From NCBI GenBank assembly GCA_038046005.1, contig JBBSXB010000007.1, positions 586 to 64,585 on the forward strand: a DNA stretch of 64,000 bases, read 5' to 3'. Shown here one piece after another: positions 29,660 to 56,292 of this stretch. Positions within the stretch are counted from its first letter, which is position 1, and the number at the start of each line of letters is the position of its first letter. Origin of the DNA: Nanobdellota archaeon (GTDB lineage: Archaea; Nanobdellota; Nanobdellia; Pacearchaeales; GW2011-AR1). Below the pieces are notes generated by a model. The model did no database searches, was not told the DNA's origin, and saw only the letters and a program-made list of their open reading frames with translations. A program made the position numbers and the translations under genes.

Positions 29660-29694
29660 TGCTGTTTGATCTTGATAATGTTTTTAAATGAATC

Positions 29695-30603
29695 ATGTAT
29701 TGTTTTTATATGTGTGAACAAAAGTGGGTTGTAATTTTGGCTTTGCTTTTTTTGATGCCAAATATTCTAGCTTCTACAATAGATCAATTTCATGAGGTAT
29801 CTGAAGGACAGCGTTTGACTTTTGCTGAAAGACAAGATTCATGGGGAGTCACATGGAGTTATATAACTACAGATTCACAGCCTCCTACTCCTGCATTTAA
29901 GGGAATTCCTCCTGGTGTTGACAACTTAGGAGTGCCTCCAGGAGCAAATATGCATAAGGTTTTTGGATACTTGAAAACAGATAATTATTCTAGCAATGGG
30001 ACTAATCTTGGATGCATATTGAACTGCAATATTACTGCCACATTTAATTGGACTCCAGGACATTGTCAGGCTATTCAGTCAAATTATACTTTCTACAACA
30101 CAACCAGCAACACAACAAGAAAATATAATTACCATTTTAATTTATTGAAATGGAGAAGTGATCTACCTTTTCCTGGAGTTCCTATTGATACTATAATTGA
30201 AAAAATAGTTGTTTACAATGTTAATAGAGCTCCAACATTAAATGGAATTCCCATTTATACTTCGGTGAGGCCTTATAATGGAGTTTACCCTCCATTTAAT
30301 ATTCAGTTTGTTGCTTATGATGCTGATGAAGTGGAGTGTGGTGATGACAAAGTTAATCCTGTTATTTTCTTGGCTAATGGCACTGGTGCAACAATAACCA
30401 GAATAGGCAACAGCTCAACTTATATCTTTAATTGGGATCCAAGTTATGTTCCTCGTACTAGATATTATTTTAATTTTTCAACGAGTGACAAGTATAATGC
30501 TACTTCACAAAAACAAATGATCATCGATGTGTTTCCTCCAAAGTCTTTTGTAAAATATCCTCCTGTTTCTCAAGTAGCTCCTGATACAAATCCTCTTAAT
30601 TAA
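29695..30603 (+). CDS. secreted sequon-rich protein, unknown family
   Basis: Signal-like WVVILALLFLMPNILAST and many N-x-S/T sequons. Confidence 0.6.
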   Translation: MYCFYMCEQKWVVILALLFLMPNILASTIDQFHEVSEGQRLTFAERQDSWGVTWSYITTDSQPPTPAFKGIPPGVDNLGVPPGANMHKVFGYLKTDNYSSNGTNLGCILNCNITATFNWTPGHCQAIQSNYTFYNTTSNTTRKYNYHFNLLKWRSDLPFPGVPIDTIIEKIVVYNVNRAPTLNGIPIYTSVRPYNGVYPPFNIQFVAYDADEVECGDDKVNPVIFLANGTGATITRIGNSSTYIFNWDPSYVPRTRYYFNFSTSDKYNATSQKQMIIDVFPPKSFVKYPPVSQVAPDTNPLN

Positions 30604-30666
30604 TTGTAGTTTTGAGCAGGCAAAACATTAAAAAGGATTACGAGATTAATTTTTCTGTACTATTTC

Positions 30667-30739
30667 GCGGAGGTGGCACAGCGGCTACTGCGGTTGCCTG
30701 CAAAGCAACTTTTCGTGGGTTCGAGTCCCACCCTCCGCT
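30667..30739 (+). tRNA. tRNA-Cys (anticodon GCA)
   Basis: Acceptor GCGGAGG/CCTCCGC, anticodon stem GTTGC/GCAAC with loop CTGCAAA, T-arm GTGGG-TTCGAGT-CCCAC, discriminator T. 73 nt. Confidence 0.85.
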
Positions 30740-30758
30740 TTTTGGGTTTTGTTTTTTT
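30740..30758 (+). terminator. oligo-T tract after tRNA-Cys
   Basis: TTTTGGGTTTTGTTTTTTT lies directly after the tRNA. Archaeal RNA polymerase terminates at T-runs. Confidence 0.4.
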
Positions 30759-30799
30759 ATAAGGCAAGAAATAAAAAGCTAGAAACTTTTGAAACTACA

Positions 30800-31366
30800 A
30801 TGGTGAAAAAAATATATCTAGTTCATGGGTGGGGAGGAAGCAGCCAAGAACCTTGGTTTAACTGGCTTAAGAAAGATATGGAAAAAAAGAAATTTGAAGT
30901 TCATGCTTTTGATATGCCTGATACGGAGAATCCTAAGATAAGTGAATGGGTTAATTATTTAAGAGAGAATATTGAAATTGATGAAATTGATGAGCATACT
31001 TATTTTGTTGGGCACAGTATCGGGTGCCAAACCATATTGCGATTTTTGGAGAAACTTCCTAAAAGTAAAAAAATTGGTGGATGTATATTTGTTGCTCCTT
31101 GGCTAGACCTAATTAATATTGGGTCGGAGGAACTTGAAATAGTCCAGCCATGGATAAATTCCAAAATAGACTTTGGAAGGATTTTAACTCACGATACCAA
31201 ATTTTTCTGTATTTTTTCTGATAATGATCCATATGTCCATTTAGATGAAGCAAAAAAATTCAAAGATAAACTGGGTGCAAAGATAATTTTTAAAAAGAAA
31301 CAAGGACATTTCAATTCTGAGTCTGGGGTGAAAGAAATTCCAGAAATTTTGCAGTTTTTGAGATAA
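30800..31366 (+). CDS. alpha/beta serine hydrolase (YdeN/RBBP9-like)
   Basis: IYLVHGWGGS, nucleophile elbow GHSIGC, and a late D...H (NDPYV...QGHF). I chose the ATG at 30800 because it lies downstream of the tRNA terminator. Confidence 0.7.
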   Translation: MVKKIYLVHGWGGSSQEPWFNWLKKDMEKKKFEVHAFDMPDTENPKISEWVNYLRENIEIDEIDEHTYFVGHSIGCQTILRFLEKLPKSKKIGGCIFVAPWLDLINIGSEELEIVQPWINSKIDFGRILTHDTKFFCIFSDNDPYVHLDEAKKFKDKLGAKIIFKKKQGHFNSESGVKEIPEILQFLR

Positions 31367-31470
31367 AAAACTAAATCTTCTTCTCTTTTCTTAATTGATA
31401 TAACTTAATCATTATTCCTAAAGTTGCTAATATACTCAAATAAAGTAAAAGATAGTCTGTTGTTGTCATA

Positions 31471-32238
31471 TTATTTTCCAGAGACTTTTTTGTATCTTCT
31501 TTCAACTGCAATTAGGATTGTTGCAGCAAAGATTACTGCAATAAAAACATAAACGAATTTATTACTTTTCAGATAACTAAACCAGGCTATTCCATCCTGG
31601 TCTGGGCTAATCCCTCCAGTAATCCCTGTTCTTTTTGAAGCAGAATCATCTACTGCTCCAATTACGTTACCTGTTCCCGTTAGCTGTACATCTGACCTAA
31701 TCAAAGAGGTCTCACCATCTGTGACCCTTAAATTATAGACTCCTTCTGGTGCTACCAGTCTGTATGACGCAGATTCGCCAATTCCCAGATTGGGAGTTTG
31801 AGTTCCTGTTGTTTCCCCAATTGTTATTTTTATTGTTCTTGTGTAAGGGGTGTTTCCAATGTTTTTTACAACAAGAGTCTCTCCCTGTAATTCAAAACTT
31901 ACCAATTCTTTTCTTCCAATATTAAAAAATTCTATCGCTTCTGTATTTCCATTTGTGGCTCTTATTATTGCTTGCCCTGAACTTGCCTCATCTAATCTTA
32001 TAGTTGCTATTTGTGTTGAGGAAACTGCTGACTTTGTTATTCTCTTTGCAGAGTCTTGTATTGTTATATCCACCTGGCCGTCAATAGGATTTCCAGAATT
32101 GTCATATAATGTTGCTTTGAAATTTATTGGATTTCCTGCTGAAATTTCCTTCCCATTTGGGAATTCTATTGTAATTGAATTAGCTGAAACTAAAGAAACA
32201 GCCAAGATTATTCCTAGAAAAAATAATATTTTTTTCAT
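31471..32238 (-). CDS. surface protein with signal peptide and C-terminal TM anchor
   Basis: N-terminal LFFLGIILAVSLVSA, beta-rich repeats, and C-terminal FVYVFIAVIFAATILIAV followed by a basic tail. Confidence 0.65.
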   Translation of the reverse strand: MKKILFFLGIILAVSLVSANSITIEFPNGKEISAGNPINFKATLYDNSGNPIDGQVDITIQDSAKRITKSAVSSTQIATIRLDEASSGQAIIRATNGNTEAIEFFNIGRKELVSFELQGETLVVKNIGNTPYTRTIKITIGETTGTQTPNLGIGESASYRLVAPEGVYNLRVTDGETSLIRSDVQLTGTGNVIGAVDDSASKRTGITGGISPDQDGIAWFSYLKSNKFVYVFIAVIFAATILIAVERRYKKVSGK

Positions 32239-32344
32239 GTTTTTAATAGGCTTGATGCTTATTTAAAAGTTTTTGTTATATTCTAGAGAACAACAATGTT
32301 TAAATAAAAAATTGCGGTGTTTTTTGTACAAGGAGGTGAAAGAG

Positions 32345-33711
32345 ATGAAAAGAAATTTGTTTTTTGGATTGTTGTTTTTATTTATAGTTATGATGGTTGT
32401 TTCTGCAAAGCCTTCTTCAGGAGTTTGTCCAATTCAACAGGACACAAATGTTGTTTTTTATGGTCAAACAGGGTTTGGAGGTGTAGGCGACTTAAGTAGG
32501 TCATGGATTCTCATTTTTTGGATTGGTGGAAACAGCAAGATCTTTCTGTTAAATATGCAATTCTTGATGCAAACGACATTAAGAGTGATTGCAATCTTGT
32601 TAATTATCCAAACGTCAAGGTTTACATACAGCCGGGAGGAAATGCTTACTACCAACAAAAACAGCTCGGCTCTGTTGGAAAAACTAACATAAATAATTAT
32701 ATCAATTCTGGAAGAGGATATGTTGGAATTTGCGCTGGGTTTTATTATGCTGCAGGAGACTATTATTGGCAAGGCAGTTACTACAACTGGCCTAATTTGC
32801 TTAATAAATATCCTACAGTTGAAGGTTCAATAACAAACATAGCTGACTATGATTCAAGTTCCGGATATGCTTTAACTACTTTAAGCAACGGGGAACAAAT
32901 GATTTACTATGGGGGCCCAACTCGTGGTTGGAGACAAACTCCTAGCAGTTTTCCTGGACAAGCTTTAATGTCTTTCGCAAGTATTTCTAACAACTTACCA
33001 GCTTCTATAGAATACAACAACATGCTTTTGATGAGCGTACATGCAGAGGCTTATGAAAATGACGGGATTTATGGACTTACAACAAATCAGAGAGTAAGGA
33101 ATTATATTTGGTTCGCAAATGCAATCAATAATGTTTCAGGAACAAGCTTTTATGTTCCTGTTTTGCCTAGTTCTGCTGTTTGCGGGAATGGGATTTGCGA
33201 AGCGGGAGAGGATAGTTATTCATGTCCTGCAGATTGTTATGTAAGCTCAGGAAATGTGACAAACATTTTTTATGATGATTTTGAATCTGGATTGGGCAAC
33301 TGGGCAACAACTGCTGTTTCTGGAGGAAATTCTTGGAACATTGCTACAACAGATCCTTATCAGGGAAGCTATGCAGAGTCAAATCCAATGTCTACAACAG
33401 ATCCTGCTTCAATATTAGAGAAGGGGATTTCGACTGTTGGCTATGGAAACATAAAAGTCAGCTATTATAGGAAGCTTGTCGGATTAGACATAGCTGATGA
33501 ATTCCAAGCTAAGTGGTTTGACGGCGTAAATTGGAATATTTTAGAGCAAACTGGAAGCAATTCTGCCGACGATGTAAGCTATTTGTATAAAGAGTTTAAT
33601 ATTCTAGCAATGGCTTACAACAACTCTAACTTTAAGATAAGATTCGAGTGTACAGCCGGCGCTGTTTCAGAATTCTGCAGAGTTGATAATGTCTTGGTTT
33701 CAGGACAATAA
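32345..33711 (+). pseudogene. secreted GATase1/BPL_N-like protein with a C-terminal DxFESG jelly-roll-like module, interrupted by a 1-nt frameshift at a T6 run
   Basis: SD AGGAGGTGA is followed by an ATG at 32345 and a signal peptide in one frame (ORF 32273-32692). The rest is in another frame (ORF 32503-33711). Adding one T to the run at 32514-32519 joins them as ...SRSWILIFLDWWKQQ.... The PGG...GICAG motif resembles class I amidotransferase / biotin-ligase N-terminal domains. Confidence 0.6.
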
Positions 33712-33790
33712 TCTTTATTTTATTCTTTTTTCTTTTTCTTTTTTATTTACTTGGAAACGTTTAAATACTTTAAATGGTACTATAAAAAGT

Positions 33791-34027
33791 ATGGTGAAAA
33801 GTAGATTAAAAAGTACTGTAAAAAGTGCGATTAATCGTGCTATAATTAAGGAGGCCATAATAAAGACAATTGTGGGTTCAGAAAAACCACTTTCTACAGA
33901 AGAAATAGCAAAAAATCTATCTAAATCTTGGCATACCATTATTCGTTATTGTTTGGATTTAACAAACGAAGACAAACTCGTTAAGTTTGAAATTGGGAGG
34001 ATAAGTGTCTGGCAAATTAAAAAATGA
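33791..34027 (+). CDS. small winged-helix DNA-binding protein
   Basis: I chose the ATG at 33791 because it is ~25 nt after TTTAAATAC. PLSTEEIAKNLSKSWHTIIRYCLDL...KLVKFEIGRISVW is an HTH plus wing pattern. Its stop overlaps the next start (ATGA). Confidence 0.55.
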   Translation: MVKSRLKSTVKSAINRAIIKEAIIKTIVGSEKPLSTEEIAKNLSKSWHTIIRYCLDLTNEDKLVKFEIGRISVWQIKK

Positions 34028-37000
34028 AAAAAATAGCGATTAAGAATGAAAAGCAATTTGCAACTTGGTTTAAAAAGAACTTTAAAAAAATTGGTTACTC
34101 AAAAATTATTAGAGGAGACATTTCAAAATGTCCAGATTTTGTTATGTTAAAAAATGGAAAAGAGGTGAGGGTTGAATTGGAAACTACTTCTTCCAATTTC
34201 ATTGCCCATAAACACTCTTATGACGATGTTGATGAGATTGTTTGTTTAGTTAAAGATGTTAAATTAGATAAGCCGGTGATAGTTGTTGATGAATTAAAAT
34301 ATGAAGGAAAAATGAAAGTTACACTAAGCATAGATAGTAAGACATATTCCGAATTCCAAAAATATTGTGAAGATCATGCCATAATGCTTTTTAAAAAGAT
34401 TGAGCTGGCAATCAAAGATATTATGAAAAAAAAGAGGGTCTTGATGTTTTTTTTGTTTTCTTTTATTTTAATTTTTTCTTTGCAAGGAATTCTTGGCGAC
34501 CAAATATTCTTTGATGGATTTGAATCTGGGGGAGTGGCCAATTGGACTTTATGGAGCAATGCTGGGGCAAACACAAACTGGACTGCTTCTTCGGTAGATC
34601 CTGCTTCTGGATTATTCCATGCTAATGGGAATCCAAGGACAACGAATGATCCTGGAATAGTGATGAATCGAAGCATGAGCACTTTAGGATATCAAAATAT
34701 CACTCTTAATTATTCCAGAAAACTTAACATTGGAACAGCTCTTAAGACATTCAGAGTCAGATGGTATAATGGTAGCACTTGGGCCATTTTGGAAAATGCA
34801 AATAACACTGTGGATTCCGTTTATCTAAATAAGAGTTTTGTTTTTCCGTCTTCTGCTAGCAATAATTCAAATTTTAAAATAAGTTTTGAGTGCACAGAAG
34901 GCACAACGACTGATTTTTGCAGGGTCGATAATGTGAACATAACTGGAAACAGCATCGCTTCAAATACTGCTCTAGGAGTAACAATAAATTCGCCTACAAA
35001 TTTGACTTTTAATGCATCAACTTTGAATCTGAATGTTAGCGTCACTGGCTCAAATATAAGCAGTGTCTGGATTTCTTTAGATGGTGGGCAAAATATTACT
35101 TATGCGCATAGAAATGGCACAATAGACTTTGGATATCTTGACTTAACTTTTGTTGACGATTTTGATTCTTATTCTGAAGGAAGCAACGCCAGCCCAGTGT
35201 GGGATGTCAAGCCCTGGTTTCAAACAGCAATAATAGAGAATAGGACTTACAAACTTTATAACGAGACTGCATTAATTGATGCATTGGCTTCTATAAACGG
35301 TTTTAGTCAGCTGGATTATTGGGCTTCTGCAAAGGTTAGGGTTCCAAGCGGCTCAAATGGAAGTGCTTATCTGACTCCGAGATTTGGCGATGTAAATAAC
35401 AAGTATGAGATCGCTCTGGATTATGATTTCAGCTCTATCAATATAAATAAAGCCGTGAATGGAAATTGGTCTAGTCTGGCTGCTTTGTGGACAGGGAATT
35501 TACCAACGCCTGTTTTTGTTAGCAAGAACGAGTGGCATTTACTTGGCTCTAGGGTGAAAGGGAACAATATTTCTGCTTATGTCGATGGGCAATTAGCATT
35601 GAACGTTACAGATTCAGATTTGAACAATGCAACTTTTTCAGGATTTTCTTTGATAGCTCTGGATGACGTGGCCCTTCACACGGCTTATTTTGACGATTTA
35701 GAAATTCATAAGGAACTAACTTATGGTTCGCATACTTTAACTGTTTATGTAAACAACACTAATGGAGAAATTAATTCAAGTGCTGTGACTTTCTTTATAA
35801 ACACTAGTAGTCAAATCCCATTTTTCTCTAATTATTCTGAGAGTCCCTCTAATAATTCTAATTATTCTCAAGGGCAGTTTTATGAATTTAATGTTACAAT
35901 AACCAGCACTAATGTTTCTGCTGTGAAAATAAACTTTAATGGGACTAACTATACGGCTATATACTCAATGGGAAGCAGTGTCTACTCTTTTAACAGATCT
36001 GATTTAGCTGCTGGCACTTACACTTATTATTGGTGGGCCAACGACAGTTTTGGAAATACAAATACAAGCTCTAGCAGAGATTATGCTGTGACAAAGGCAT
36101 CAACAACAACCAATATCATTGCGGTTCCTAGTTCTCCTATAATCTATGGAACGCAAAGTAATTTCTCATGTTCCAACTCTGCCGGGCTTTCAACAACCTT
36201 ATACATTGATGGAACAGATAAATCAAGCGAAAAAAACATTAATTTAACGAGAGCTGCAGGCAGTTACATTGTCAATTGCACTTCTGTCACCAACCAAAAT
36301 TATTCTGCAAGTTCTCAACAGTCTGCCTATGTTATCAATAATGCCTCTGGCCAGGTCGGATTATCCCTCAATGGTGTTGCAGATAACTTAAGTTTAGTTT
36401 ACCCAAGTCAGATAAACGCTTCAGCTTTAACGCTTTACGGAGCGATAATCATTTATAGGAATGGCGTTGATGTTACTTCGCAAAACAACCAAAATGTAAG
36501 CCTGGGGGCCGATTATTATAATTATACTGCTGTAAGCTATGGAGATGCGAATCATAGTTCAGCCAGTTTAACTTATTGGGTTAATGTAACGCAAAACAGC
36601 TCTGAAATATTCTTATATCTAAATAATTCTAGATTAAATATCACTATTGCTCAAGGGAATACTATTTCCATAAATTCAACACTGCAACAAGGACAGGGAA
36701 ATATATTTGTTTATAATGGAGGAAGCTTGATTTACTGGGGAGATTCTCCATCATATAACTTTACAACTTTTTCATCTTTTGGGCTTTATAATGTAACTGC
36801 AATATACCAACAAACACAAAACTATACAGGTTCTTTTGAAACTTGGTTCGTAAATGTTACAGGAACTTCACAGAATTTGACAGCCACAACTCCTCAAATA
36901 AAATTGTTTTATCCAAGCTATGTCTCGACTTATGGAGATAATGCTGCAATTCCATTAAACTTTTCTGTTGCTGGGAATAACACGCTTTCTTGTTGGTATA

Positions 37001-38589: not shown

Positions 38590-38849
38590 TTTTTTACTTT
38601 GATTCTGCCAATAGAAACTTTTTTGTTTAAACGCTTTAATTTGGATTCAACATCTTTTTTGTCTTTTGTTAATTTTCTTAATATTTTTGCCTCTTTTCTT
38701 TTGATATCTATTATCTCTTTTTCTTTTACTTCTGTTTTTCTTTTATCATTATTGGAAACTCTCTTTTTTATTAATAAGTACACAAGAATTATTACAAGTA
38801 TAATCACAATTACAATTGTGGACATATTAATATCACTATAATTTACCAT
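38586..38849 (-). CDS. small TM plus K/E-rich coiled-coil protein
   Basis: TIVIVIILVIILVYLLI followed by a charged helix. It is the last gene of the minus-strand surface cluster. Confidence 0.4.
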   Translation of the reverse strand: MVNYSDINMSTIVIVIILVIILVYLLIKKRVSNNDKRKTEVKEKEIIDIKRKEAKILRKLTKDKKDVESKLKRLNKKVSIGRIKVKN

Positions 38850-38890
38850 ATTATCTTCTTTTCTTTGATAGGTTTCTTTTATATAAAAAA

Positions 38891-40486
38891 CTATCTTTTT
38901 TTCTTTAGTGTAAAGATTATTAATATTATAAGTATGATTATAACAATAACTAACATTATATTCTGCCAGCTCATATGTTCTTCAGATACGACATTAAACC
39001 ATGTGGAACTGCTTGCTGTTTCGTTGTCATAGTTTGCTTTGGCCTGTAGAATATAGTTTCCTAACTTTGCAGAAGATGGGATTTTTATTTCTTTTACAAA
39101 ACTTGTCTGGGTTTCTACGGCGATGCTTTCATCTTCCCTTGAAATGATATTTTCGTCCATGTCTTTGATTGTGTAGGTTACTTCTGTATCAACTCTGCCT
39201 GTTTTACCCAAGCTGAATATTTGTATATTTGCAAAGATTTCTCCGCCAGGTGCTACGTTTAGGAATGCTTTAGGTATTTCTATTTTCAAATCAAACAAAG
39301 CTTTTTTGGAGCTGACATCAATAGCCATTAAAATTTCTTTTTTCATACTCTCTGTGCTTATAATTATTTTACCAAGATATAAACCCGGAGCAGTAGTTAC
39401 TCTTGCCAGAAGGTATAATGGAATTGTTTTTGATTCGCCAGGATTTAAAACAACCATATCTTCTCCTCTTACTACAAAATCGGTAAAGAGATTTTCTATT
39501 TCAACTTTTATAGTCTGACTTCCTGGATTGGTTATTATGATTTCTTCTGTTTTAACCTCTCCTTGCTTCAATTTTATAGTTATCTTTTCTTGGTCTAGCG
39601 TGAAATTGTCTGAGGCTTTTTGTGCGCTGCCTCCTCCACCTCCAGAGGAACTTACTACTGAGCCTGTTTGAGAACTGGCTGGTGTTTCTTCTGTGGTGTA
39701 AGTTGAAAATTGAGTTACAGTGAAAGTTAATATTCCGTTAGAATAACTTTGTGTGGAACAAATTGATGCAGGACAAACTGCTCCATCTTTTAAAATTCTT
39801 GGATTTGTAAATATTAAATTATATAGAGTTAGAGTTGCGGATTTGTTTAAGTTTGGAAGGGCTGTTGAATTTATTTCTATTCTATTGAATGAGATGTTTG
39901 TGTTGGTGTCTAAATCAAGTTCACTGTCGCTTGAGTTTAAATCGTCCGTCAAATTTATCAGCTCATCAAAGTGGATTTTTCCATAATCAGTCTTTTCTAA
40001 AACTAGACCATTAAGATCTTGGATTTCATTGTAGCCGGAAATATTCAAGTTGGTTGAATTTCCCTTGTAGAGTCCTGAAAATTCTTCATAATGTACCGTA
40101 AATTTAGAAAGATTTACAAAGAAACTTACGTTTTTTGCTGTAAGTCCATAGGTGTTATTTGCATATAGATAAATGGTGTGACTTCCAGAACTTACGTTAA
40201 AATAAGTTGAAGACGTGATTGTCGTATTTGCAGAATTGTCTATATTGTAGAATATGTAACTCGCATAACGAGATGTGAAATTTAATAAAAGAGACTGGTT
40301 GTTAAAGTAAGTATCATTTTTTGGAGTTATTATTGTCAATTCTGGAGGACCGACAACGCTTATGTTTATGGCCACGTTCGAGCTGACTGCTTCTCCAACA
40401 GGCTTCCCTCTTTCAGCTATCCTCATAGAAACCAGTATTAAAAGAAGCAATAAAATTGAGCATCCAAATACCACCCATCTTTTCAT
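38891..40486 (-). CDS. surface protein (531 aa) with poly-Gly linker, beta-sandwich domains and C-terminal TM anchor
   Basis: Signal peptide, sequon-rich N-terminal half, a SSSGGGGGS linker, then two CARDB-like segments (NPGESKTIPLYL; SSAKLGNYIL) and the TM helix LVIVIIILIILIIF with a KKKR tail. The C-terminal architecture matches that of the 1,521-aa protein. Confidence 0.75.
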   Translation of the reverse strand: MKRWVVFGCSILLLLLILVSMRIAERGKPVGEAVSSNVAINISVVGPPELTIITPKNDTYFNNQSLLLNFTSRYASYIFYNIDNSANTTITSSTYFNVSSGSHTIYLYANNTYGLTAKNVSFFVNLSKFTVHYEEFSGLYKGNSTNLNISGYNEIQDLNGLVLEKTDYGKIHFDELINLTDDLNSSDSELDLDTNTNISFNRIEINSTALPNLNKSATLTLYNLIFTNPRILKDGAVCPASICSTQSYSNGILTFTVTQFSTYTTEETPASSQTGSVVSSSGGGGGSAQKASDNFTLDQEKITIKLKQGEVKTEEIIITNPGSQTIKVEIENLFTDFVVRGEDMVVLNPGESKTIPLYLLARVTTAPGLYLGKIIISTESMKKEILMAIDVSSKKALFDLKIEIPKAFLNVAPGGEIFANIQIFSLGKTGRVDTEVTYTIKDMDENIISREDESIAVETQTSFVKEIKIPSSAKLGNYILQAKANYDNETASSSTWFNVVSEEHMSWQNIMLVIVIIILIILIIFTLKKKR

Positions 40487-40516
40487 AAATTAAATACACT
40501 TAAAATATATTTAAAC

Positions 40517-41098
40517 CTATTGCGATTGTTTTTTCACTTGCTTTTTGGCTTTCATTACAAGGAAGAATATTATAATCACAACTATCAAAATAGCGATTAT
40601 CAACCATATTGCAGTGTTAGTTGTTTCTTTTGGCTGTTCTTTTGGAGTTGCTGAAGTGTTTACGCCTTGGCTTATCACCACTATAGGTATGTTTGTCGTG
40701 AAACCGCTTGCAACCTGTACCATTTGACCTGAGCCGGAAGCAATTTGCTGGAAGGATACAGTTACTGTGTAAGAATCTCCCGCTTTTGCGTTTGAAGGAA
40801 TGTCTATTTTAACATTTACAGGAACATCATCCTTTCCAAAAGGGACAAAGTAATTCAGATTTTTGTCAATCAAAGTGGCCACTCCTGCATTGTTTGTCAA
40901 ATTTGCGATTAGCGTTATATCTTCATTCCCAACCATATTCTGGAGCGTCAGTGCAACTGTTTTTGATTCTCCAGGAGTCATTGTCAATGGATCGCTAGCC
41001 CAGTATGGTGTTACAACTCCTGAAGCGCTGGCATATGAAATTGCTAGAATTCCAAAGAGGAATAACAATCCAATTTTTGTGTATTTTGTGTTTATCAT
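40517..41098 (-). CDS. small surface protein with C-terminal TM anchor
   Basis: Signal peptide, one beta-sandwich-like domain (TPGESKTVALTLQN...AKAGDSYTVTVSF), and the TM helix WLIIAILIVVIIIFFLV with a basic tail. Confidence 0.65.
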   Translation of the reverse strand: MINTKYTKIGLLFLFGILAISYASASGVVTPYWASDPLTMTPGESKTVALTLQNMVGNEDITLIANLTNNAGVATLIDKNLNYFVPFGKDDVPVNVKIDIPSNAKAGDSYTVTVSFQQIASGSGQMVQVASGFTTNIPIVVISQGVNTSATPKEQPKETTNTAIWLIIAILIVVIIIFFLVMKAKKQVKKQSQ

Positions 41099-41105
41099 TT
41101 TATTT

Positions 41106-42038
41106 TTATGCTACTGCAACACTCCAAGCACCATACGCAGATGACGAATATGATTGCTGGCTTATTGATGGGGGAAGCCCTTTAAGGCAGAAATAAATCT
41201 GTTCCTGCCCCGATGTCTCATTATTGTTATTTATAGAATTGTTCCCTTTGAATAATATAGACGAAGTGACATTTGTCGATGTTGCGTTAACCATTGCTGT
41301 TCCCGTACATCCTTGCGAGGTATTTTCAACTGTGAAATTTGCAGCATATATAAAGTCAGTAATTGTCGTTTCACCTCTAAGGTTGTATGATGTAACGTTG
41401 ACACTTAGCGCATTTGCATTACCTGTATTGTTAACGATGATTGGATCATTATTTGAACCAACATCTGTGTCGGTAGATGAAAGTGTCTGCCATGTCATTG
41501 CTGTTGGAGACATTGCCATTGCCGTAAGCAAATTGTAGGTGAAAGTTGGTGTTGAATTTGTAGCGTACCCTCCATTTTTATCAGTTATTGTTGTGTTGAC
41601 TGTCCATGCACCATTCACATCATAATAGTACATGTTTATAGTGCATGTAAAATTAATATTATTTCCTACACCAACAGAAAGATTTATGCAAGAAGTATTT
41701 GATCTTGTGGTTTCGCTTGCTTTCTGAAAATAGGCTGTTGCGGTGCTCGTGTTAATGTTCGAAGCTCCGTCAGTGTCTGTTGCGGTGAAATTAAAAGTTA
41801 TTGACTTTGTTGTTGATTCTGTCGGGTTTTGTGCAGAGATTGCATTAACTATTGGGATTGTTGGGGCTGAATTTCCCAAAGTAATGTTTAGTGTTGTGGT
41901 GCTGCTTGTTGCAAATCCAGTTATCTCTGCTACTTTGTTAAAAAAGTTAGTATGATTTAAAACCAATATTAAGAATATCAGCAGAACAGCTCCAGCAATA
42001 AAATACACTCCTCCTTTACCCATCAAGGTTTTAGTCAT
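41106..42038 (-). CDS. truncated paralog (310 aa) of the C-terminal extracellular part of the 1,501-aa surface protein
   Basis: It has its own N-terminal anchor (VYFIAGAVLLIFLILVL). From APTIPIVNAISAQ onward it is homologous to the upstream large gene, including 422 nt of perfect identity. Confidence 0.7.
   Translation of the reverse strand: MTKTLMGKGGVYFIAGAVLLIFLILVLNHTNFFNKVAEITGFATSSTTTLNITLGNSAPTIPIVNAISAQNPTESTTKSITFNFTATDTDGASNINTSTATAYFQKASETTRSNTSCINLSVGVGNNINFTCTINMYYYDVNGAWTVNTTITDKNGGYATNSTPTFTYNLLTAMAMSPTAMTWQTLSSTDTDVGSNNDPIIVNNTGNANALSVNVTSYNLRGETTITDFIYAANFTVENTSQGCTGTAMVNATSTNVTSSILFKGNNSINNNNETSGQEQIYFCLKGLPPSISQQSYSSSAYGAWSVAVA
41124..41545. repeat. 422-bp perfect direct repeat, copy 1 (in the 310-aa gene)
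   Basis: Identical base for base, compared by eye, to 42645-43066 (offset 1,521 bp). The flanks are diverged and mosaic. Confidence 0.9.
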
Positions 42039-42047
42039 TTTTCCTTT

Positions 42048-45000
42048 TTAAATATTATTGTTATTCAGCTTCTTTGCCGCCCTTGCATAAATTGTCCATA
42101 TGTTCCTTTGGTCTCTTGAAAGCAGACTGGCTATCTCAACAAATTTCATTTGTTTGGCTTTTAGGTATACAACGAGAGATTCTAATGTGGTTAAGTTTTT
42201 GTTCTTGAAAATTTCTATTGGAATTTTTGCCCCTTCTTTAACATCAAAAGGTTCTTTTTGCTTTTTCACTGACTTTTTGTAAGAAGTCCAAATGGTTCTT
42301 TCATCTCTTCCTATCATATCTGAAATCTCTTTGTAGTTCATGTTTAGATTTTCTTTCATGTATTTGACAATCGTCTCTAAACCTCCAAGGTTTTTTGAGA
42401 ATATTGTTGCAGGTATGTTCACTTCTTTAGTATTGTTCAGTATTTCTACAATCTCTTTTTTGCTTATCTTGTGTTTTTCTTTTAGCTTGTCAATTATAAT
42501 GTTGACCATTTCCTTCTTATTCAAGGAATATTCTTCCTTTAACTCTTCTAAAATAAGTTCAAGTGCTTCTATTAATTTGTCATCTTTTACATTTTTCTTC
42601 TTCTTTTTTCTTGGAATCAACAAGACCAAACTTATTCTTATAACCCAAGCACCATACGCAGATGACGAATATGATTGCTGGCTTATTGATGGGGGAAGCC
42701 CTTTAAGGCAGAAATAAATCTGTTCCTGCCCCGATGTCTCATTATTGTTATTTATAGAATTGTTCCCTTTGAATAATATAGACGAAGTGACATTTGTCGA
42801 TGTTGCGTTAACCATTGCTGTTCCCGTACATCCTTGCGAGGTATTTTCAACTGTGAAATTTGCAGCATATATAAAGTCAGTAATTGTCGTTTCACCTCTA
42901 AGGTTGTATGATGTAACGTTGACACTTAGCGCATTTGCATTACCTGTATTGTTAACGATGATTGGATCATTATTTGAACCAACATCTGTGTCGGTAGATG
43001 AAAGTGTCTGCCATGTCATTGCTGTTGGAGACATTGCCATTGCCGTAAGCAAATTGTAGGTGAAAGCTTCTGAAGAATTTTCAACATATAATCCGGTGTT
43101 ATCCTGAACGGTAGCATTTATTGTCCATGCGCCATTCAAATCAAAATACCACATGTCTATTGTGCATGTAAAATTAATATCGTTTCCAGAGGCGGCTGTT
43201 TGATTTATACAAGAAGTATTTGATCTTGTTGTTTCCCCTGCTTTTTGAAAATATGCTCTTGCAGTGCTTATGTTCACAGTTGATCCTCCATTCAAATCTG
43301 TTGCAGTGAAATTAAAAGTTATTGACTTTGTTGTTGATTCTGTTGGGTTTTGTGCAGAGATTACATTAACTATTGGGATTGTTGGGGCTACTTGGCTGAT
43401 TATATTAACAACAAAACTATTGTTCAATCCAAGATTATTTGCAGAATCATTTGCATAAACATTTATTATTTTATTGCCATCCGCAAGATTTGTTAAAGGT
43501 ATAGATGTGGTGTTACACCATCCATTAGAAACAGCCAGCGTTGTATTTGTTCCGTTCACTTCAATATTACAGAAACTAGGGGGGGTTGTTGCGTCAATTA
43601 CAGAGATATTCAACGTTAGAGTATCTGTGTTTTGCTTTTGGGTGGCATTTGTGTAGACTGGCAAAGTAATTGTCGGTGCTGTTGTGTCAATCCAGACTGC
43701 ATAAGAATTATTTAAAGCCAAATTTCCAGCACTATCGTTGGCGTAAGCATTTATTGTCTGATTTCCGTCTGCAATTCCCGTCAATGCATAAGTTCCGTTG
43801 CACCATCCACCAGATGCTGCAACTGTCTGGTTTGCATTGCCATTTACATTTATCGAGCAGTATGAAGCCCCAACTCCTACGTCTGAGATTGATAAATTGA
43901 ATGTCAGGCTTTGGGTGTTTTGTTTTTGAGTTGCGTTCGTGTAAACTGGCAAGGTTATTGTTGGTGCTGCGTTTTGGATTGTGTAAGCTTGTAAAGTTGT
44001 AACATTCCAATTATTTGATGAATCGTTTGCGTATTGTTTCCACCCTATTGTTTTTCCTTCGCATTCATTTGGCACTGTCCAGCTCATGTTACTCCAGTTA
44101 GTTGTTCCTGCAAAAGTTGAGTTTATTGTGACATTTGCAAGAGTGTTACAGCTTGCGCCTGTGGAATTAATCTCTAAAATCACATAACTTAGCTGAGTGT
44201 CGTCTGTCCAATTTGTGTTGTGCGAAACTGTTGAGCCTGGAAGAGGGTTTGAGTCGTTTGTCAAGGGATTGCTATAATTTGGGGCTGCTACATCTGGATC
44301 AGGCGTTGTTTTATTGACTACAAAATCATCAACCCATAAATTTTCTCCGGAGCCAAGAACTGCGTTGAATCTTACTCTAAAATTGGACTTGAAATATTGG
44401 CTGTCAGATGTAGTGAAACTTACCCATTGCCAGGTGTCTTCTGTTCCGCTTTCAAGGGATTCAGTTATTGCGTCATAAGCTGAGCCGTCAAAGAAATAAA
44501 AGTCTATATCTGTTGCATCTAAATCATCATCCATAAACCAAAAACTCACATTTATGAATGTTGCATCGCTAGTGTCAATGTCGTCTGTTATTAAATCGCC
44601 CTCATTTCCATTAGAAGCCAGCACAGATTGTGCTCCTGCATGTTTTTGCGCTGTTGATATATCCCAAGTCGTAGCACCATTCCCATCCCATTTAGCTAAA
44701 GCAGACTCAAAATCATCTGAAAATATACTAGTAATCGGATCAACTATATAATCAAATTCGATACTTCCTCCAACAACTTTTAAGTCAAATGTGTCTTGAG
44801 AACTTTGCAAGTTTGTTAAGAATATTTTATTATCTTGGTTCGAATTTATCGAGGAGAATTCTGCAATCTTTGTTGTTTGATTTAATTCATAGACCTCAAT
44901 CCTTGGATTTCCAGAGATTACTCTTGGAAATAGAGTTATATCATTTTCTGAAGTTAAATTTTTTTCAAATGTAACTCTTACATAATCTTGATTTGAGATT

Positions 45001-46553
45001 TCTTCACTCCATACATTGTCAAGAGTTTTTACTTGATCGTAAATATTGGAGATGAAAGTTTTATCTTTGTATAAATGTTCAGCCTTGGTTATCACGATAA
45101 TATCAAAGGTCTGGTTTGAAAGATGAGGAACAATCCATTCAATGTAATCATAAATTCCATTTCCATCTTTATCTTGGACATTTTCTGGAGAGATATAGGC
45201 ATTTTGCTCTTCCCAGAAGATTTTTACTGTCGAAGGATTTTTTATGTTTAAATTTTCGCTGAGATTAGCAAAAGCCAAGACATCAGTGTAGTGGACATTA
45301 TCTGGCGAGGAAATTTTTATTTTTTTCCCTCTCGAGATTTGTTCTTCTACAACAGATGGAGCAGGAGTTTCATAACTTATTTCATAGTCTCCTGGATTAT
45401 CTTGAATTGTTACCTCTTTATCTTGAGCTAGATTGTCAACGTTAAACTTAGTTTTTCCCCCTTGCGAGTTTAATGTTTCTATCTTTTCTGCTTCTTTTGG
45501 AATTTTGACATTTGGATTTTTTTCTTCAGCAATAAATCTTTTTGTCCATTTTACTGGCTGACCTAAAATCGCTCTGCTTTGGGTTGTTGTTATCCTTTCT
45601 TCAGCAATGGTGTTATTTTTTTCTGAAGTTATGTTTGTTTCTGGCGTGATATTGGTTTTTGGCTCTTCCTGAATAATTTCTTTCAGCGTTTGATACTTGG
45701 CTGATTCTAAAAATAATTCTGCGTTGTCTATCTCAATCCTTAAATTGTAAGAAGTTTTGCTGAGATTCAATCCTGTGAGGTCGCAAGTTTCTTCACAGAT
45801 GTTTGCAAATTTTTTTGTCATTTCTTTTTCGATTATGTTAACTTGGCTTTCATTTCCTTTTTCAGTTTGGTCTTGCGAGACGTTAGTTGTGTTTTCAGAG
45901 GAAGGAGACTCCCCTTGGAAAGGACTCGACTCGTTTGAATCATTTTGAGGAGTCTCATTTATTCCTTCTGAATTTGAAATTGATGCACCTGTGATATAGT
46001 CTGTTTCTTTTATTTTTGTACTATCTAGAATTAACAAATTATCAAGATAAATTTTAACTGAGCCCTTTACTTTTATTAATCCGCTTAGTTTTAGATATCC
46101 AAGTTGCCCAAAATTTTCTGGCTTCCATTCATAATTTGTTGATTCATTAAAATTTATATTTAGAGTCTGGCTAAATTCCTGATTTTGAACATTTGGCTGA
46201 GCAAAAAATCCTGTCAATCCGGGCTTAAAATAAAAAATTGTTAAAGATAAAATACCTAGAATCAATATAAAAACAAAAAAGTTAAAACTAAACCTTTTGT
46301 GCGTATGTTTTTTTATATGTCTTTCAGAATAGCCGATAAAGTGATCATAATGGTGAATTAACTCTTGGATATTTCTTCCATTGTGCTTTTTGTGCGAGAT
46401 TTCTAGATACTCTGCTTGAGAGATTTTTCCTTTTGAACAAGCTTCATTTAACTCTAAAATATAGTTTTGGAGTTTTTCTTTTCCGACTTTTGCAACCTTT
46501 AATGCTTTTTTGTACTCTTCTATTGGGGCTTTTGCTAGTCGAGTCTTTTCCAT
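42048..46553 (-). CDS. 1,501-aa surface protein: N-terminal cytoplasmic segment and TM, DxFES module, tandem Ig-like repeats, then a C-terminal double HTH tail
   Basis: N-terminal TM helix FNFFVFILILGILSLTIFYF and a long sequon-rich ectodomain. After ...SAYGAW comes a short hydrophobic stretch VIRISLVLLIP plus KKKKK, then two HTH repeats (LETIVKYMKENLNMNYKEISDMIGRDERTIWTSY and LESLVVYLKAKQMKFVEIASLLSRDQRNIWTIY). Confidence 0.8.
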   Translation of the reverse strand: MEKTRLAKAPIEEYKKALKVAKVGKEKLQNYILELNEACSKGKISQAEYLEISHKKHNGRNIQELIHHYDHFIGYSERHIKKHTHKRFSFNFFVFILILGILSLTIFYFKPGLTGFFAQPNVQNQEFSQTLNINFNESTNYEWKPENFGQLGYLKLSGLIKVKGSVKIYLDNLLILDSTKIKETDYITGASISNSEGINETPQNDSNESSPFQGESPSSENTTNVSQDQTEKGNESQVNIIEKEMTKKFANICEETCDLTGLNLSKTSYNLRIEIDNAELFLESAKYQTLKEIIQEEPKTNITPETNITSEKNNTIAEERITTTQSRAILGQPVKWTKRFIAEEKNPNVKIPKEAEKIETLNSQGGKTKFNVDNLAQDKEVTIQDNPGDYEISYETPAPSVVEEQISRGKKIKISSPDNVHYTDVLAFANLSENLNIKNPSTVKIFWEEQNAYISPENVQDKDGNGIYDYIEWIVPHLSNQTFDIIVITKAEHLYKDKTFISNIYDQVKTLDNVWSEEISNQDYVRVTFEKNLTSENDITLFPRVISGNPRIEVYELNQTTKIAEFSSINSNQDNKIFLTNLQSSQDTFDLKVVGGSIEFDYIVDPITSIFSDDFESALAKWDGNGATTWDISTAQKHAGAQSVLASNGNEGDLITDDIDTSDATFINVSFWFMDDDLDATDIDFYFFDGSAYDAITESLESGTEDTWQWVSFTTSDSQYFKSNFRVRFNAVLGSGENLWVDDFVVNKTTPDPDVAAPNYSNPLTNDSNPLPGSTVSHNTNWTDDTQLSYVILEINSTGASCNTLANVTINSTFAGTTNWSNMSWTVPNECEGKTIGWKQYANDSSNNWNVTTLQAYTIQNAAPTITLPVYTNATQKQNTQSLTFNLSISDVGVGASYCSINVNGNANQTVAASGGWCNGTYALTGIADGNQTINAYANDSAGNLALNNSYAVWIDTTAPTITLPVYTNATQKQNTDTLTLNISVIDATTPPSFCNIEVNGTNTTLAVSNGWCNTTSIPLTNLADGNKIINVYANDSANNLGLNNSFVVNIISQVAPTIPIVNVISAQNPTESTTKSITFNFTATDLNGGSTVNISTARAYFQKAGETTRSNTSCINQTAASGNDINFTCTIDMWYFDLNGAWTINATVQDNTGLYVENSSEAFTYNLLTAMAMSPTAMTWQTLSSTDTDVGSNNDPIIVNNTGNANALSVNVTSYNLRGETTITDFIYAANFTVENTSQGCTGTAMVNATSTNVTSSILFKGNNSINNNNETSGQEQIYFCLKGLPPSISQQSYSSSAYGAWVIRISLVLLIPRKKKKKNVKDDKLIEALELILEELKEEYSLNKKEMVNIIIDKLKEKHKISKKEIVEILNNTKEVNIPATIFSKNLGGLETIVKYMKENLNMNYKEISDMIGRDERTIWTSYKKSVKKQKEPFDVKEGAKIPIEIFKNKNLTTLESLVVYLKAKQMKFVEIASLLSRDQRNIWTIYARAAKKLNNNNI
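42645..43066. repeat. 422-bp perfect direct repeat, copy 2 (in the 1,501-aa gene)
   Basis: Identical to 41124-41545. The identical antisense shadow ORFs 41224-41538 and 42745-43059 in the ORF track confirm it. Confidence 0.9.
43389..43967 (-). repeat. tandem in-frame repeat, 2 x ~96 aa (APTITLPVYTNATQKQNT... units)
   Basis: Units 43680-43967 and 43389-43679 both start with APTITLPVYTNATQKQNT and share conserved Cys and N-x-S/T positions. A third APTI-initiated unit follows and forms the start of the region shared with the 310-aa paralog. Confidence 0.8.
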
Positions 46554-46626
46554 ACTTATTATGTATGTATTAAAACTTATAAATGTATGTAAAAATATTA
46601 AAAATACTTATTATGTGTGTATTAAA
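46552..46626. repeat. 23-nt direct repeat ATACTTATTATGT(A/G)TGTATTAAA x2 in the divergent intergenic region
   Basis: Copies at 46552-46574 (overlapping the start codon of the 1,501-aa gene) and 46604-46626, with one mismatch. Confidence 0.75.
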
Positions 46627-46641
46627 TGTATGGGCCAAAAA

Positions 46642-46686
46642 TTTGTAGTGCCTACAAAAGATTTAAATAGTTTTTTGTAGTGCCTA
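46642..46686 (+). promoter_or_regulatory. glyS promoter: TATA box (46661-46670) bracketed by two TTTGTAGTGCCTA repeats
   Basis: The 13-mer occurs at 46642-46654 (extended to the palindrome TTTGTAG-TGC-CTACAAA) and at 46674-46686. ATTTAAATAG between them lies ~25 nt upstream of the ATG at 46691. Confidence 0.55.
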
Positions 46687-55190: not shown

Positions 55191-55610
55191 TTAATTTTCG
55201 TTATCTAAATACTTTTTTTGTAGGAAAACAATAATTTTATTAATTTCTTTAATATTTTCCTCTACCTCTTCCGCAGAAATATTTTTTCCATAATAATTTA
55301 TGCTGTTTTTTATTCTCCTAAATCTCTCAAATTTTTCAGAAATAACAGGCTCACTGAGCTTCTTAAGAAAATATGTAAAAGCTTCGTGAGAGTATATTTT
55401 ATAGCCATGTTTAGAGGCTATTGCTTCAAGAATACTTCTCAAAACATCATAATAGTTACTCATGGTTTTCCTTGCGGAATTTTCATTAATTGAAATATTT
55501 TTAAGAAAAGACAAATCTGTTTTAGATGTAAGAACAAGAGATTTAATTAAAGCTTTGTCTGGAGAAGCTTTCTTTACCTGACCATTCTTTATAAAATCGT
55601 CAAAATTCAT
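55191..55610 (-). CDS. HEPN domain protein (toxin partner of MNT)
   Basis: All-helical 139 aa with ...FERFRRIKNSINYYG... (HEPN R-x-x-x-N-x-x-Y region). It overlaps the upstream MNT gene by 4 nt. Confidence 0.65.
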   Translation of the reverse strand: MNFDDFIKNGQVKKASPDKALIKSLVLTSKTDLSFLKNISINENSARKTMSNYYDVLRSILEAIASKHGYKIYSHEAFTYFLKKLSEPVISEKFERFRRIKNSINYYGKNISAEEVEENIKEINKIIVFLQKKYLDNEN

Positions 55611-56149: not shown

Positions 56150-56292
56150 ATGTCTAATTAAATGAACAATTGTCCATTTATAAGGTTTTCTGGTGATTGA
56201 GTTTGAAATTAACTTGAAGTGAATTTTGATCGAAAGATTTATAAGTTATACTTCTGTATAACTTATGTATAACTAAACAATATTAAATAAAA

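Follow-up and report, generated by a model that had tools for sequence, protein, structure and literature searches.

Pacearchaeota are abundant, uncultured archaea that are presumed to live as episymbionts. Two groups of very large proteins from such small archaea have been described. The SPEARE proteins of Nanohaloarchaeota are very long, with variable extracytoplasmic laminin-G/adhesion domains, a transmembrane (TM) segment near one end and a conserved cytoplasmic nucleic-acid-related domain; they were proposed to act in host interaction, and the domain was reported not to be found in Nanoarchaeota (Hamm et al. 2019, PMC6642349). In Pacearchaeota and Woesearchaeota, large extracellular proteins with an SLT domain were proposed to attach to bacterial walls, and the same work listed, next to these SLT giants, unannotated membrane or extracellular Pacearchaeota-specific families and unexplained "sigma-70" genes without anti-sigma factors in DPANN archaea (Castelle et al. 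2021, PMC8204110). Here, a 64,000-nucleotide stretch of a Nanobdellota archaeon genome (contig JBBSXB010000007.1, hereafter the window) was analyzed, with attention to the genes at positions 29695–46553. The core of this region, at ~33.8–46.6 kb, is a conserved locus with genes for two giant proteins and several small ones. We lean, with modest confidence, towards the reading that it encodes a lineage-specific Pacearchaeota adhesion or coat apparatus composed of two giants and their small partners, possibly coupled to transcription.

The names g1–g9 refer to the nine open reading frames (ORFs) of a first-pass annotation of this DNA. Eight of them were recovered exactly as annotated, but 32345–33711 (g3), with its 1,367 nt, is not an ORF. 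The region had also been described as a ~17-kb supercluster of neighbouring surface protein genes, whereas a tRNA-Cys gene (30667–30739), a cytoplasmic Ser_hydrolase gene and a gene encoding a winged helix-turn-helix protein (the wHTH gene) intervene. The tRNA-Cys gene is the only structured RNA gene within 29695–46553, and none lies in the core. The genes of the core are as follows:

42048–46553, minus strand: g9, giant protein of 1,501 amino acids (aa)
41106–42038, minus strand: g8, 310 aa, N-terminal anchor and a two-domain module, without a C-terminal anchor of its own
40517–41098, minus strand: g7, 193 aa, signal peptide, one CARDB/NEW3-like beta-sandwich, TM segment and basic tail
38891–40486, minus strand: g6, 531 aa, signal peptide or anchor, TM segment and KKKR tail
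38586–38849, minus strand: g5, 87 aa, N-terminal TM segment and Lys-rich coiled tail; its stop codon overlaps that of g4 by 4 nt
34024–38589, plus strand: g4, giant protein of 1,521 aa
33791–34027, plus strand: wHTH gene, ~78 aa; its stop codon overlaps the g4 start (ATGA)

Look-ups around the homologues revealed one core order, namely glycyl-tRNA synthetase (GlyRS), g9, g8, g7, g6, a small non-conserved ORF and the convergent g4. It is kept in the window, the sister genome (loci L009 and L063), GCA_016201665 (L060), GCA_964497435 (L061) and a Hainich H43 contig (L062). The wHTH gene usually precedes g4, and in L060 it is in turn preceded by g3. Since the same gene order is found in several genomes, the core is a conserved Pacearchaeota locus, not a strain-specific pile of genes; g1, g2 and g3 are peripheral to it. 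The idea of a strain-hypervariable supercluster was thus not borne out: at least five Pacearchaeota genomes share the synteny of the core, and each of its genes has an orthologue. The proposal that the minus-strand genes from g9 to g5 look like an operon agrees with their spacers of 9, 7, 30 and 41 nt. Wherever a homologue of a cluster protein carries an organism name, it stems from a metagenome-assembled genome of Pacearchaeota or Nanoarchaeota.

The window proteins were searched against Pfam, NCBIfam and PDB sequences; PHROG profiles, AlphaFold 2 (AF2) models and Foldseek were also used. The domain organization of g4 (plus strand) is as follows:

34024–34308, plus strand (aa 1–95): possible PD-(D/E)xK-like domain, predicted to be cytoplasmic
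34309–34434, plus strand (aa 96–137): probable ribbon-helix-helix (RHH) domain
aa 139–157, plus strand: TM1
34495–34959, plus strand (aa 158–312): DxFESG jelly-roll
aa 431–561, plus strand: LamG-like domain (3keto-disac_hyd, E 2.5e-4, below the cut-off)
up to aa 1241, plus strand: array of immunoglobulin (Ig)-like domains
37747–37773, plus strand: G9 (poly-Gly) linker
37777–38448, plus strand (aa 1252–1475): CARDB-like pair
aa 1476–1494, plus strand: TM2, followed by a basic tail

The organization of g9 (minus strand) is as follows:

46293–46553, minus strand (aa 1–87): helical N-domain, predicted to be cytoplasmic
aa 88–106, minus strand: TM1
aa 107–324, minus strand: stalk rich in N-glycosylation sequons
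44736–45581, minus strand (aa 325–606): conserved core of three beta-sandwiches
44304–44735, minus strand (aa 607–750): jelly-roll
43389–44303, minus strand (aa 751–1055): Ig-like APTI units
42630–43388, minus strand (aa 1056–1308): g8-like module
42594–42653, minus strand (aa ~1301–1320): short hydrophobic segment and poly-K
42051–42563, minus strand (aa 1331–1501): tail with two helix-turn-helix (HTH) domains, predicted to be cytoplasmic

Basic residues stand beside the hydrophobic segments of both giants, and the second segment of g9 is followed by ~8 Lys or Arg in 15 residues. Both proteins most likely adopt an N-in/C-in topology and are anchored at both ends, with ectodomains of 1,200–1,300 aa. 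The C-terminal TM helix with a basic tail, which had been attributed to most of the nine proteins, is present in g2, g4, g6 and g7 and absent from g1, g3 and g8; in g5 the TM segment is N-terminal instead, and in g9 the hydrophobic stretch and poly-K precede a domain of ~180–190 aa. The more general description of membrane-anchored or secreted beta-sandwich proteins is supported. The first-pass annotation overlooked the predicted cytoplasmic HTH and RHH domains of g9 and g4, which are the most distinctive feature of the locus.

The smaller g6 repeats part of this plan, with a sequon-rich Ig-like N-half (aa 30–280), a G5 linker (aa 282–286) and a CARDB-like pair (aa 290–508). In g4, g6 and g7, CARDB/NEW3-like sandwiches precede the terminal TM segment, and the g9 ectodomain ends in the g8-like module. 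Matches of these sandwiches to NPCBM_assoc (CARDB/NEW3) reached 20.5 bits for g4 and 16.3 bits for g7, with a gathering cut-off of 24.4, and the Pfam matches of g7 are weak (NPCBM_assoc, E 0.012; Ig_VWA7, E 0.008); some homologues carry PF10633 or PF07705. The arrangement of a poly-Gly linker, two beta-sandwiches and a TM anchor is indeed common to g4 and g6, but the homology is remote: the pairwise E-value of the C-terminal pairs is 0.012, and profile–profile comparison with hhalign gave a probability of 95% and E 1e-8 at 19% identity. A recently shuffled module was rejected here in favor of ancient homology, given the 19% identity.

Other modules do recur in different combinations, as had been proposed, both inside the window and across homologues. 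Units that open with APTI start at aa 863, 959 and 1056 of g9 and at aa 58 of g8, and the first two are 64% identical. A DxFESG module had been counted three times. The copies in g3 (aa 255–401 of the ORF that starts at 32503) and g4 (aa 161–308) are clearly related (44% identity, E 1e-32), whereas the third, at aa 607–746 of g9, is far more distant (27%, E 2.5e-7) and has LWVDDF in place of the CRVDN motif. A profile of this jelly-roll gave weak matches to CBM22 and gingipain adhesins. Homologues of g4 are mosaic, and Laminin_G_3 occurs in homologues.

The 124 homologues of g9 all belong to Pacearchaeota or Nanoarchaeota and are 840–2,623 aa long. Their N-domain, core, g8-like module and tail are conserved; the N-domain begins at residue 1 in every homologue, the core was found in 113 of 127 homologue subjects, and the g9-type tail lies at the extreme C-terminus. 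The middles are variable and contain LamG, parallel beta-helix, MAM, Big_13 or NHL-like repeats. Modeling of the core with AF2 led to an all-beta model of three beta-sandwiches (pLDDT 89). A fold search with this model returned only generic sandwiches of the carbohydrate-binding module (CBM) or discoidin type, with TM-scores of at most 0.3; the core profile had no relative in PDB, and full-length g4 and g9 gave nothing useful against PDB sequences. In L061, the g9 orthologue is split (14471–15901): the ORF stops within the g8-like module, and a different frame encodes the HTH tail, which is either a frameshift or an assembly error.

Very dense sequons had been reported for the proteins of the cluster. 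The sequons in each protein were compared with 2,000 composition-preserving shuffles, and the claim holds for five of the nine. The enrichment is strong in g4 (83 observed, 31.5 expected), g9 (58 and 27.5), g6 (18 and 8.0) and g1 (11 and 3.7), and moderate in g8 (17 against 10.3); g2 (0 against 2.7), g3 (3 against 5.8) and g7 (2 against 2.1) are not enriched. Outside this comparison, g5 has two sequons in its 87 aa. The distribution within the proteins is uneven. Residues 158–1241 of g4 contain 78 sequons against 31 expected (z 10) and its cytoplasmic part contains none, and in g9 (z 5.5 for the distal ectodomain) the enrichment falls on aa 607–1308 (41 against 21) and on the stalk. In g6 it falls on the N-half (16 against 7.4), with two in the CARDB-like pair (1.8 expected). 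Predicted cytoplasmic segments, membrane-proximal domain pairs and the g9 core stay at expectation. The same regional enrichment was found in the orthologues of four other genomes, and the sequon-rich modules are probably N-glycosylated.

These properties also fit a purely structural envelope, that is, an S-layer-like coat in which g6 is the lattice or coat glycoprotein and g4 and g9 are scaffolds or spacers, with no role in host recognition; sequence divergence would then reflect pressure from phages or predators on an exposed coat. The g6 family argues for this explanation. It comprises 403 homologues and is near-universal and full-length at 500–620 aa, with a signal peptide, C-terminal TM segment and sequons, like many archaeal S-layer glycoproteins. 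The best 120 homologues are full-length and 43–62% identical to g6, and every organism-named one among them is from Pacearchaeota, Nanoarchaeota or an unclassified archaeon. Identity stays on a plateau of 45–50% even against the sister genome (47% for the sister orthologue), which resembles allelic replacement of surface antigens. The conservation of the locus and its setting among housekeeping genes point in the same direction. However, searches of Pfam, NCBIfam and PDB gave no S-layer or adhesin family match, in agreement with the earlier remark that no canonical S-layer protein is recognizable, and the proteins show no sortase-type signal such as PGF-CTERM. The giants, moreover, carry variable modules of CBM, LamG or beta-helix type that are typical of binding proteins, and a coat would leave their cytoplasmic HTH and RHH domains unexplained. 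A solely structural role is rated as unlikely.

A comparison with the sister genome indicated that the surface genes diverge far faster than the housekeeping genes. For GlyRS, EndA and the 336-aa gene at 50057–51067, dS is ~1.2 and dN 0.04–0.07, whereas dN reaches 0.58 in g7 and 0.44 in g6; the identity of g7 with its sister orthologue is 40%, and that of GlyRS is 90%. Orthologues of g7 are present in all syntenic loci. The g9 gene departs from this background in another way, with dS of only 0.18 in the core and 0.08 in the jelly-roll. Such low values against a background of ~1.2 indicate recent exchange between co-resident lineages. The window differs from independent assemblies at 11 positions, all of them within g9 at 44487–45006.

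A further sign of recombination is a repeat that the first-pass annotation overlooked. Protein g8 is 86% identical to aa 1056–1308 of g9, a paralogous two-domain module, and the DNA at 41124–41868 is directly repeated at 42645–43389, with a spacing of 1,521 nt and an identity of 100% over ~400 nt and then 55–95%. In the five genomes, g8 and the g9 module of the same genome are 86, 83, 87, 77 and 67% identical, and between genomes the identity is 60–69%. Since g8 is closer to the g9 module of its own genome than to any orthologue (at most 69%), the two copies evolve in concert. Logan contigs break at this repeat, but an independent ENA assembly reads through it and the paralogy is kept in four other genomes, so an assembly artefact was rejected. 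On metagenome contig L108, the g9 protein (P0030) ends in a g8-type C-terminus, and neither a tail nor a separate g8 is present; this g9::g8 hybrid is the deletion product expected from recombination between the two repeats. Mosaic homologues, concerted evolution of g8 and g9, the low-dS segment and the hybrid all point to ectodomains that evolve by recombination.

In L060, g8 and g7 are fused in frame into one 487-aa ORF (14548–16011), which gives Rosetta-stone-type support to the suggestion that g8 is tethered through g7. A relation of g8 to type IV pilins was considered and rejected: the N-terminus with KG and a hydrophobic stretch occurs in three of five orthologues and not in L060 or L062, and no pilus genes are nearby.

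By profile match, the g9 tail belongs to the Sigma70-r4/LuxR/Tfx-type HTH superfamily and consists of two repeats of this HTH. Sigma70_r4_2 matched 20 of 20 aligned g9-family tails (best E 4.7e-13) and HTH_23 matched 18 of 20; the tail of the window g9 alone scored 25.6 bits against Sigma70_r4_2, at a cut-off of 25.7. A search of PDB with the tail profile returned 8hno, an "archaeal transcription regulator" (E 9e-4). Only region-4-type HTHs (Sigma70_r4_2 and Sigma70_r4) were found, and there was no match to sigma factor region 2 in g9. Archaea are not known to have sigma factors. The recognition-helix residues R117, R120, T121, W123, R181, R184 and N185 are invariant, while the ectodomains vary. 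The tail profile matched 2,198 representative clusters, 715 of them below 1e-30. Among the best 150 clusters, almost all have the tail at the extreme C-terminus of proteins of up to 5,919 aa, and a minority are soluble proteins built solely of repeated HTH-pair modules.

The inner end of g4 is different. Its probable RHH domain matched a PHROG Arc-like repressor profile (E 7e-4, 41 of 50 positions) and PDB entry 2kel (E 0.14), and the AF2 monomer model shows two helices and no confident strand. The preceding 95 residues possibly form a nuclease-like domain. Their model has an alpha-beta-beta-beta-beta order, and the top Foldseek matches are EndA, Hjc, BamHI and RecU (E 0.04–3; EndA and Hjc 0.04–1); because the pLDDT of the model is 52, these neighbours are only suggestive. 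Residues D38 and E50 are present, and the position of the catalytic Lys is occupied by E52 (E50-L-E52), as in all five sequences.

The wHTH gene upstream matched HTH_12, TBPIP and HTH_11 in Pfam (E 0.003–0.03). Its orthologues of 74–78 aa lie directly upstream of g4 in L060, L061 and L062 and are 61–66% identical; the sister genome (L063) does not have the gene. A block of ~600 nt with the wHTH gene and the g4 nuclease-like N-domain (window 33747–34344) also occurs in L060 and L061. In the sister genome, 112 nt (L063 9937–10048) stand in its place, and g4 begins directly at the RHH domain.

The nuclease-type neighbours of g4 raise the possibility of DNA handling: the giants would link the cell to a partner through a conduit, and nucleic acid entering by this route would be bound or processed by the nuclease-like, RHH and HTH domains. 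The PD-(D/E)xK-like order of secondary structure and the nucleases among the structural neighbours would fit this, as would the parallel with the SPEARE architecture of a variable adhesion ectodomain, a TM segment and a conserved cytoplasmic nucleic-acid enzyme domain (PMC6642349). However, the lysine of the canonical E-x-K motif is replaced in g4, the model has the low pLDDT given above and no Foldseek E-value below 0.04, and few g4 homologues (4 of 26) carry the domain, which the sister genome lacks. The Pfam search also revealed no pore-forming, toxin or protease domain. We regard DNA handling as very improbable.

The promoter regions of the locus contain the following elements:

46552–46622, minus strand: g9 promoter region with two direct copies of the 19-nt motif A, ATACAYACATAATAAGTAT, and a TATA-like box, TTTATAA, between them
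just upstream of 33791, plus strand: wHTH/g4 promoter with a conserved TATA box and a TAAATGGTA-like direct repeat
46643–46654 and 46675–46686: two copies of motif B, TAGGCACTACAA, which flank a TTTAAAT box just upstream of GlyRS

The copies of motif A, at 46604–46622 and 46552–46570, are 52 nt apart. The proximal one overlaps the g9 ATG, so the g9 transcript is probably leaderless. Within the 64-kb window, motif A occurs only in the GlyRS–g9 spacer (0.06 chance matches expected). The pair recurs at identical offsets in L009, L060, L061 and L062, and the 1.09 Mb of fetched loci contain no further example. A metagenome scan gave 80 exact matches, 16 of which have a second copy 34–69 nt upstream, while the other 64 have none. 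Behind 15 of the 16 pairs the reading frame opens with a recognizable g9-type N-terminus (10 by BLAST, 5 by eye), and the remaining one (L105) is cut by the contig end. Motif B was first considered as part of the g9 control region. It was reassigned to the GlyRS promoter because similar copies are found upstream of GlyRS in L007, L008 and L010, which have no adjacent g9, and it is probably a GlyRS-specific promoter or regulatory element.

The combination of tail and motif pair could mean that signal transduction is the main function, and that proteins of the g9 family are membrane-tethered transcription factors whose ectodomain senses contact or a glycan and whose HTH tail, possibly released by proteolysis, acts on motif-A operators. 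The strong conservation of the tail and its recognition helices beside variable ectodomains is consistent with this, as are the HTH-pair module in soluble proteins and the family-wide retention of the motif-A pair around the TATA box and start codon. Motif A and the tail are both retained in the sister genome, where the wHTH gene is missing. On the other hand, the naturally tail-less g9 of L108 retains motif A, neither a protease site nor a partner protease was found, and the restriction of motif A to g9 itself in the window and fetched loci means that there is no regulon. Signalling as the main function is considered doubtful.

The adhesion or coat reading can be put together as follows. The proteins g4 and g9 would be two double-anchored giants, and g6, g7 and g8 smaller anchored partners encoded with them. 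According to their common plan, a pedestal close to the membrane, which is either a CARDB-like pair or the g8-like module and would not be glycosylated, would carry jelly-roll, LamG and Ig-like modules at the distal end; it is in these distal modules that N-glycosylation sequons are strongly enriched. These distal modules, diversified by recombination, would most likely bind glycans or surfaces of a partner cell or form an outer coat. The g8 protein would probably pair with, or replace, the matching module of g9, tethered through g7. The HTH tail of g9 and the RHH domain of g4, being DNA-binding-type folds, would tie the apparatus to DNA. The HTH and RHH domains together with a dedicated repeat pair suggest that the apparatus is coupled to transcription, in the simplest case by feedback through the 19-nt repeats that bracket the TATA box and the leaderless start of the g9 operon.

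Several observations weigh against this reading. In nature, the cytoplasmic modules can be dispensed with: neither the wHTH gene nor the nuclease-like domain is present in the sister genome, the g4 N-terminus of L062 is degenerate, and L108 has motif A with a tail-less g9. These natural tail-less and RHH-less variants indicate that coupling to transcription is not essential, and motif A may be no operator but an atypical element of the core promoter or initiator. The second hydrophobic segment of g9 is short, at ~13–16 residues, and is interrupted by an Arg or Lys (median KD15 1.62), which makes the C-in topology a prediction rather than a secure assignment. The beta-sandwich folds, whose best structural matches have TM-scores of at most 0.3, reveal no ligand specificity. 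Finally, the window encodes an equally good candidate for attachment, a secreted protein of 2,558 aa (14267–21943, plus strand) that combines a CAP/YkwD domain with an SLT lytic-transglycosylase domain (E 1.4e-20). In contrast to g4 and g9, it is significantly depleted of sequons (7 against 23 expected, z −3.8), and its membership in the proposed wall-binding family hints at a bacterial host. The proposal that the cluster is a cell–cell interaction apparatus is plausible, and it competes with this SLT/CAP protein.

With this reading, a set of "hypothetical surface proteins" becomes a defined, conserved locus of pedestals and variable, predictedly glycosylated tips, to which explicit diversity-generating recombination mechanisms, cytoplasmic DNA-binding-type domains and a conserved candidate operator can be added. 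The locus can serve as a marker for strain typing and host-range studies, and surface contact might be linked to gene control through the DNA-binding-type domains at the inner end.

A broader and quite tentative idea is that the g9 family, with its more than 2,000 representative clusters and members of up to 5,919 aa, makes up an extensive class of archaeal trans-membrane signalling proteins that has not been described before. If so, a signal would run from an ectodomain that senses glycans or contact through a short TM segment and the tandem sigma70-r4-type HTH to a direct-repeat operator at the leaderless g9 promoter. Contact with a host or surface would then directly determine how strongly the adhesion operon is expressed, the cells being so small that a tethered factor could reach its own gene. 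Some JGI annotations call g9 homologues "sigma24 family protein", which suggests that such tails may supply part of the "sigma-70" signal of DPANN archaea, and many "sigma factor" annotations there may be wrong. Part of the DPANN "sigma-70 factors without anti-sigma factors" (PMC8204110) would be explained as region-4-only tails of surface proteins.

The remaining genes of the region are peripheral:

32345–33711, plus strand: g3, frameshifted; signal peptide, BPL_N domain, Cys-rich linker and DxFESG jelly-roll (33253–33708)
31471–32238, minus strand: g2, 255 aa, signal peptide, Ig-like domains, TM segment and basic tail, no sequons
29695–30603, plus strand: g1, 302 aa, secreted and sequon-rich, between an LMW-PTP gene and tRNA-Cys

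The BPL_N domain of g3, which is class-I glutamine-amidotransferase-like, scored above the Pfam cut-off (E 1.3e-6). The signal peptide and body of g3 are in different frames because one nucleotide is missing near 32504, as judged from the 453-aa orthologue of the sister genome (L063), which is intact; g3 either is a pseudogene or has been assembled wrongly. Translation could restart at an ATG at 32503, and the product would then lack the signal peptide. An orthologue with 71% identity lies beside the wHTH gene in L060. Protein g2 has weak Pfam matches to Big_3_5 and Big_1, and orthologues in L063 and L012. The g1 protein matched nothing in Pfam or NCBIfam and is accessory, being absent from the sister genome. 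When window 29660–31470 is compared with L063 7035–7660, both g1 and the Ser_hydrolase gene, which stand on either side of tRNA-Cys, are missing from the sister; the sister keeps an identical tRNA-Cys, and the region is an indel hotspot beside a tRNA gene. As a conserved component, g5 was rejected: small ORFs at the same position in other genomes are not homologous to it, and it is probably not part of the conserved set.

The window has a GC content of ~33% and carries archaeal housekeeping genes. GlyRS sequences identical to that of the window were found in contigs from Hainich groundwater 0.1-µm filtrates (ENA Hain_H41) and in several Logan assemblies. The closest species-level genome is "Nanoarchaeota archaeon H41-bin116_1" (GlyRS 90% identical), and more distant GlyRS relatives are labelled Pacearchaeota or Woesearchaeota. 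The GlyRS has an N-terminal extension of ~75 aa (window 46691–46915; KKxIKGGEYYYLNENKR...GKVKTK..AYLG) common to Pacearchaeota relatives, and GlyRS sequences from the candidate phyla radiation (CPR) and elsewhere align only from residue 75–76 on. Downstream of LeuRS (window 55191–56870), a nucleotidyltransferase gene (NTP_transf_2/Polbeta, 180 aa) and a 139-aa partner without a family match are followed by a MazE/PIN toxin–antitoxin-like pair, as marked by Pfam on the gene calls.

Among known systems, SPEARE is the closest described concept, and the locus can be regarded, by analogy, as a variant of the SPEARE-like theme. Like SPEARE, g4 and g9 are very long DPANN proteins with a variable exterior of putative adhesion modules, a TM segment near one end, a more conserved, predicted cytoplasmic domain of nucleic-acid type and a proposed part in host interaction. 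Unlike SPEARE, they have no serine-protease, toxin or type III restriction-enzyme domain: Pfam and NCBIfam revealed no peptidase family in g4 or g9, and neither has a ResIII or helicase match. They carry a tandem sigma70-r4-type HTH and an RHH domain instead, are predicted to be anchored at both ends, and belong to a conserved multi-gene locus with small partners.

The SLT giants (PMC8204110) resemble g4 and g9 in being giant secreted proteins of the same lineages with a proposed role in host attachment, but they possess a murein-lytic enzymatic domain, are depleted of sequons and are unrelated in sequence. Archaeal S-layer glycoproteins share with the locus proteins the signal peptide or anchor, beta-sandwiches, a heavy N-glycosylation potential and a C-terminal TM segment with basic residues. 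The locus proteins differ from them in having no family or profile match and no PGF-CTERM, and in their giant mosaic architectures with cytoplasmic DNA-binding-type domains.

The bacterial ToxR/CadC regulators and the RsgI anti-sigma factors with CBM sensors are membrane-tethered proteins that respond to external conditions by acting on DNA or sigma factors within the cell. They are similar to g9 in the predicted succession of an extracytoplasmic carbohydrate-binding-type domain, a TM segment and a cytoplasmic transcription-related domain. However, g9 is not homologous to them, its HTH pair is C-terminal, its ectodomain is 10–20 times larger, and its role as a regulator is putative.

In pilE/pilS and vlsE-type systems, surface variation is driven by gene conversion. 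The g8/g9 pair is comparable in that g8 is a partial paralogue held near-identical to a g9 segment by what looks like conversion, and recombination between the two yields new forms. It differs in that there is only one donor-like copy, no evidence of programmed switching was found, and g8 is a complete, anchored gene of the operon rather than a silent cassette.

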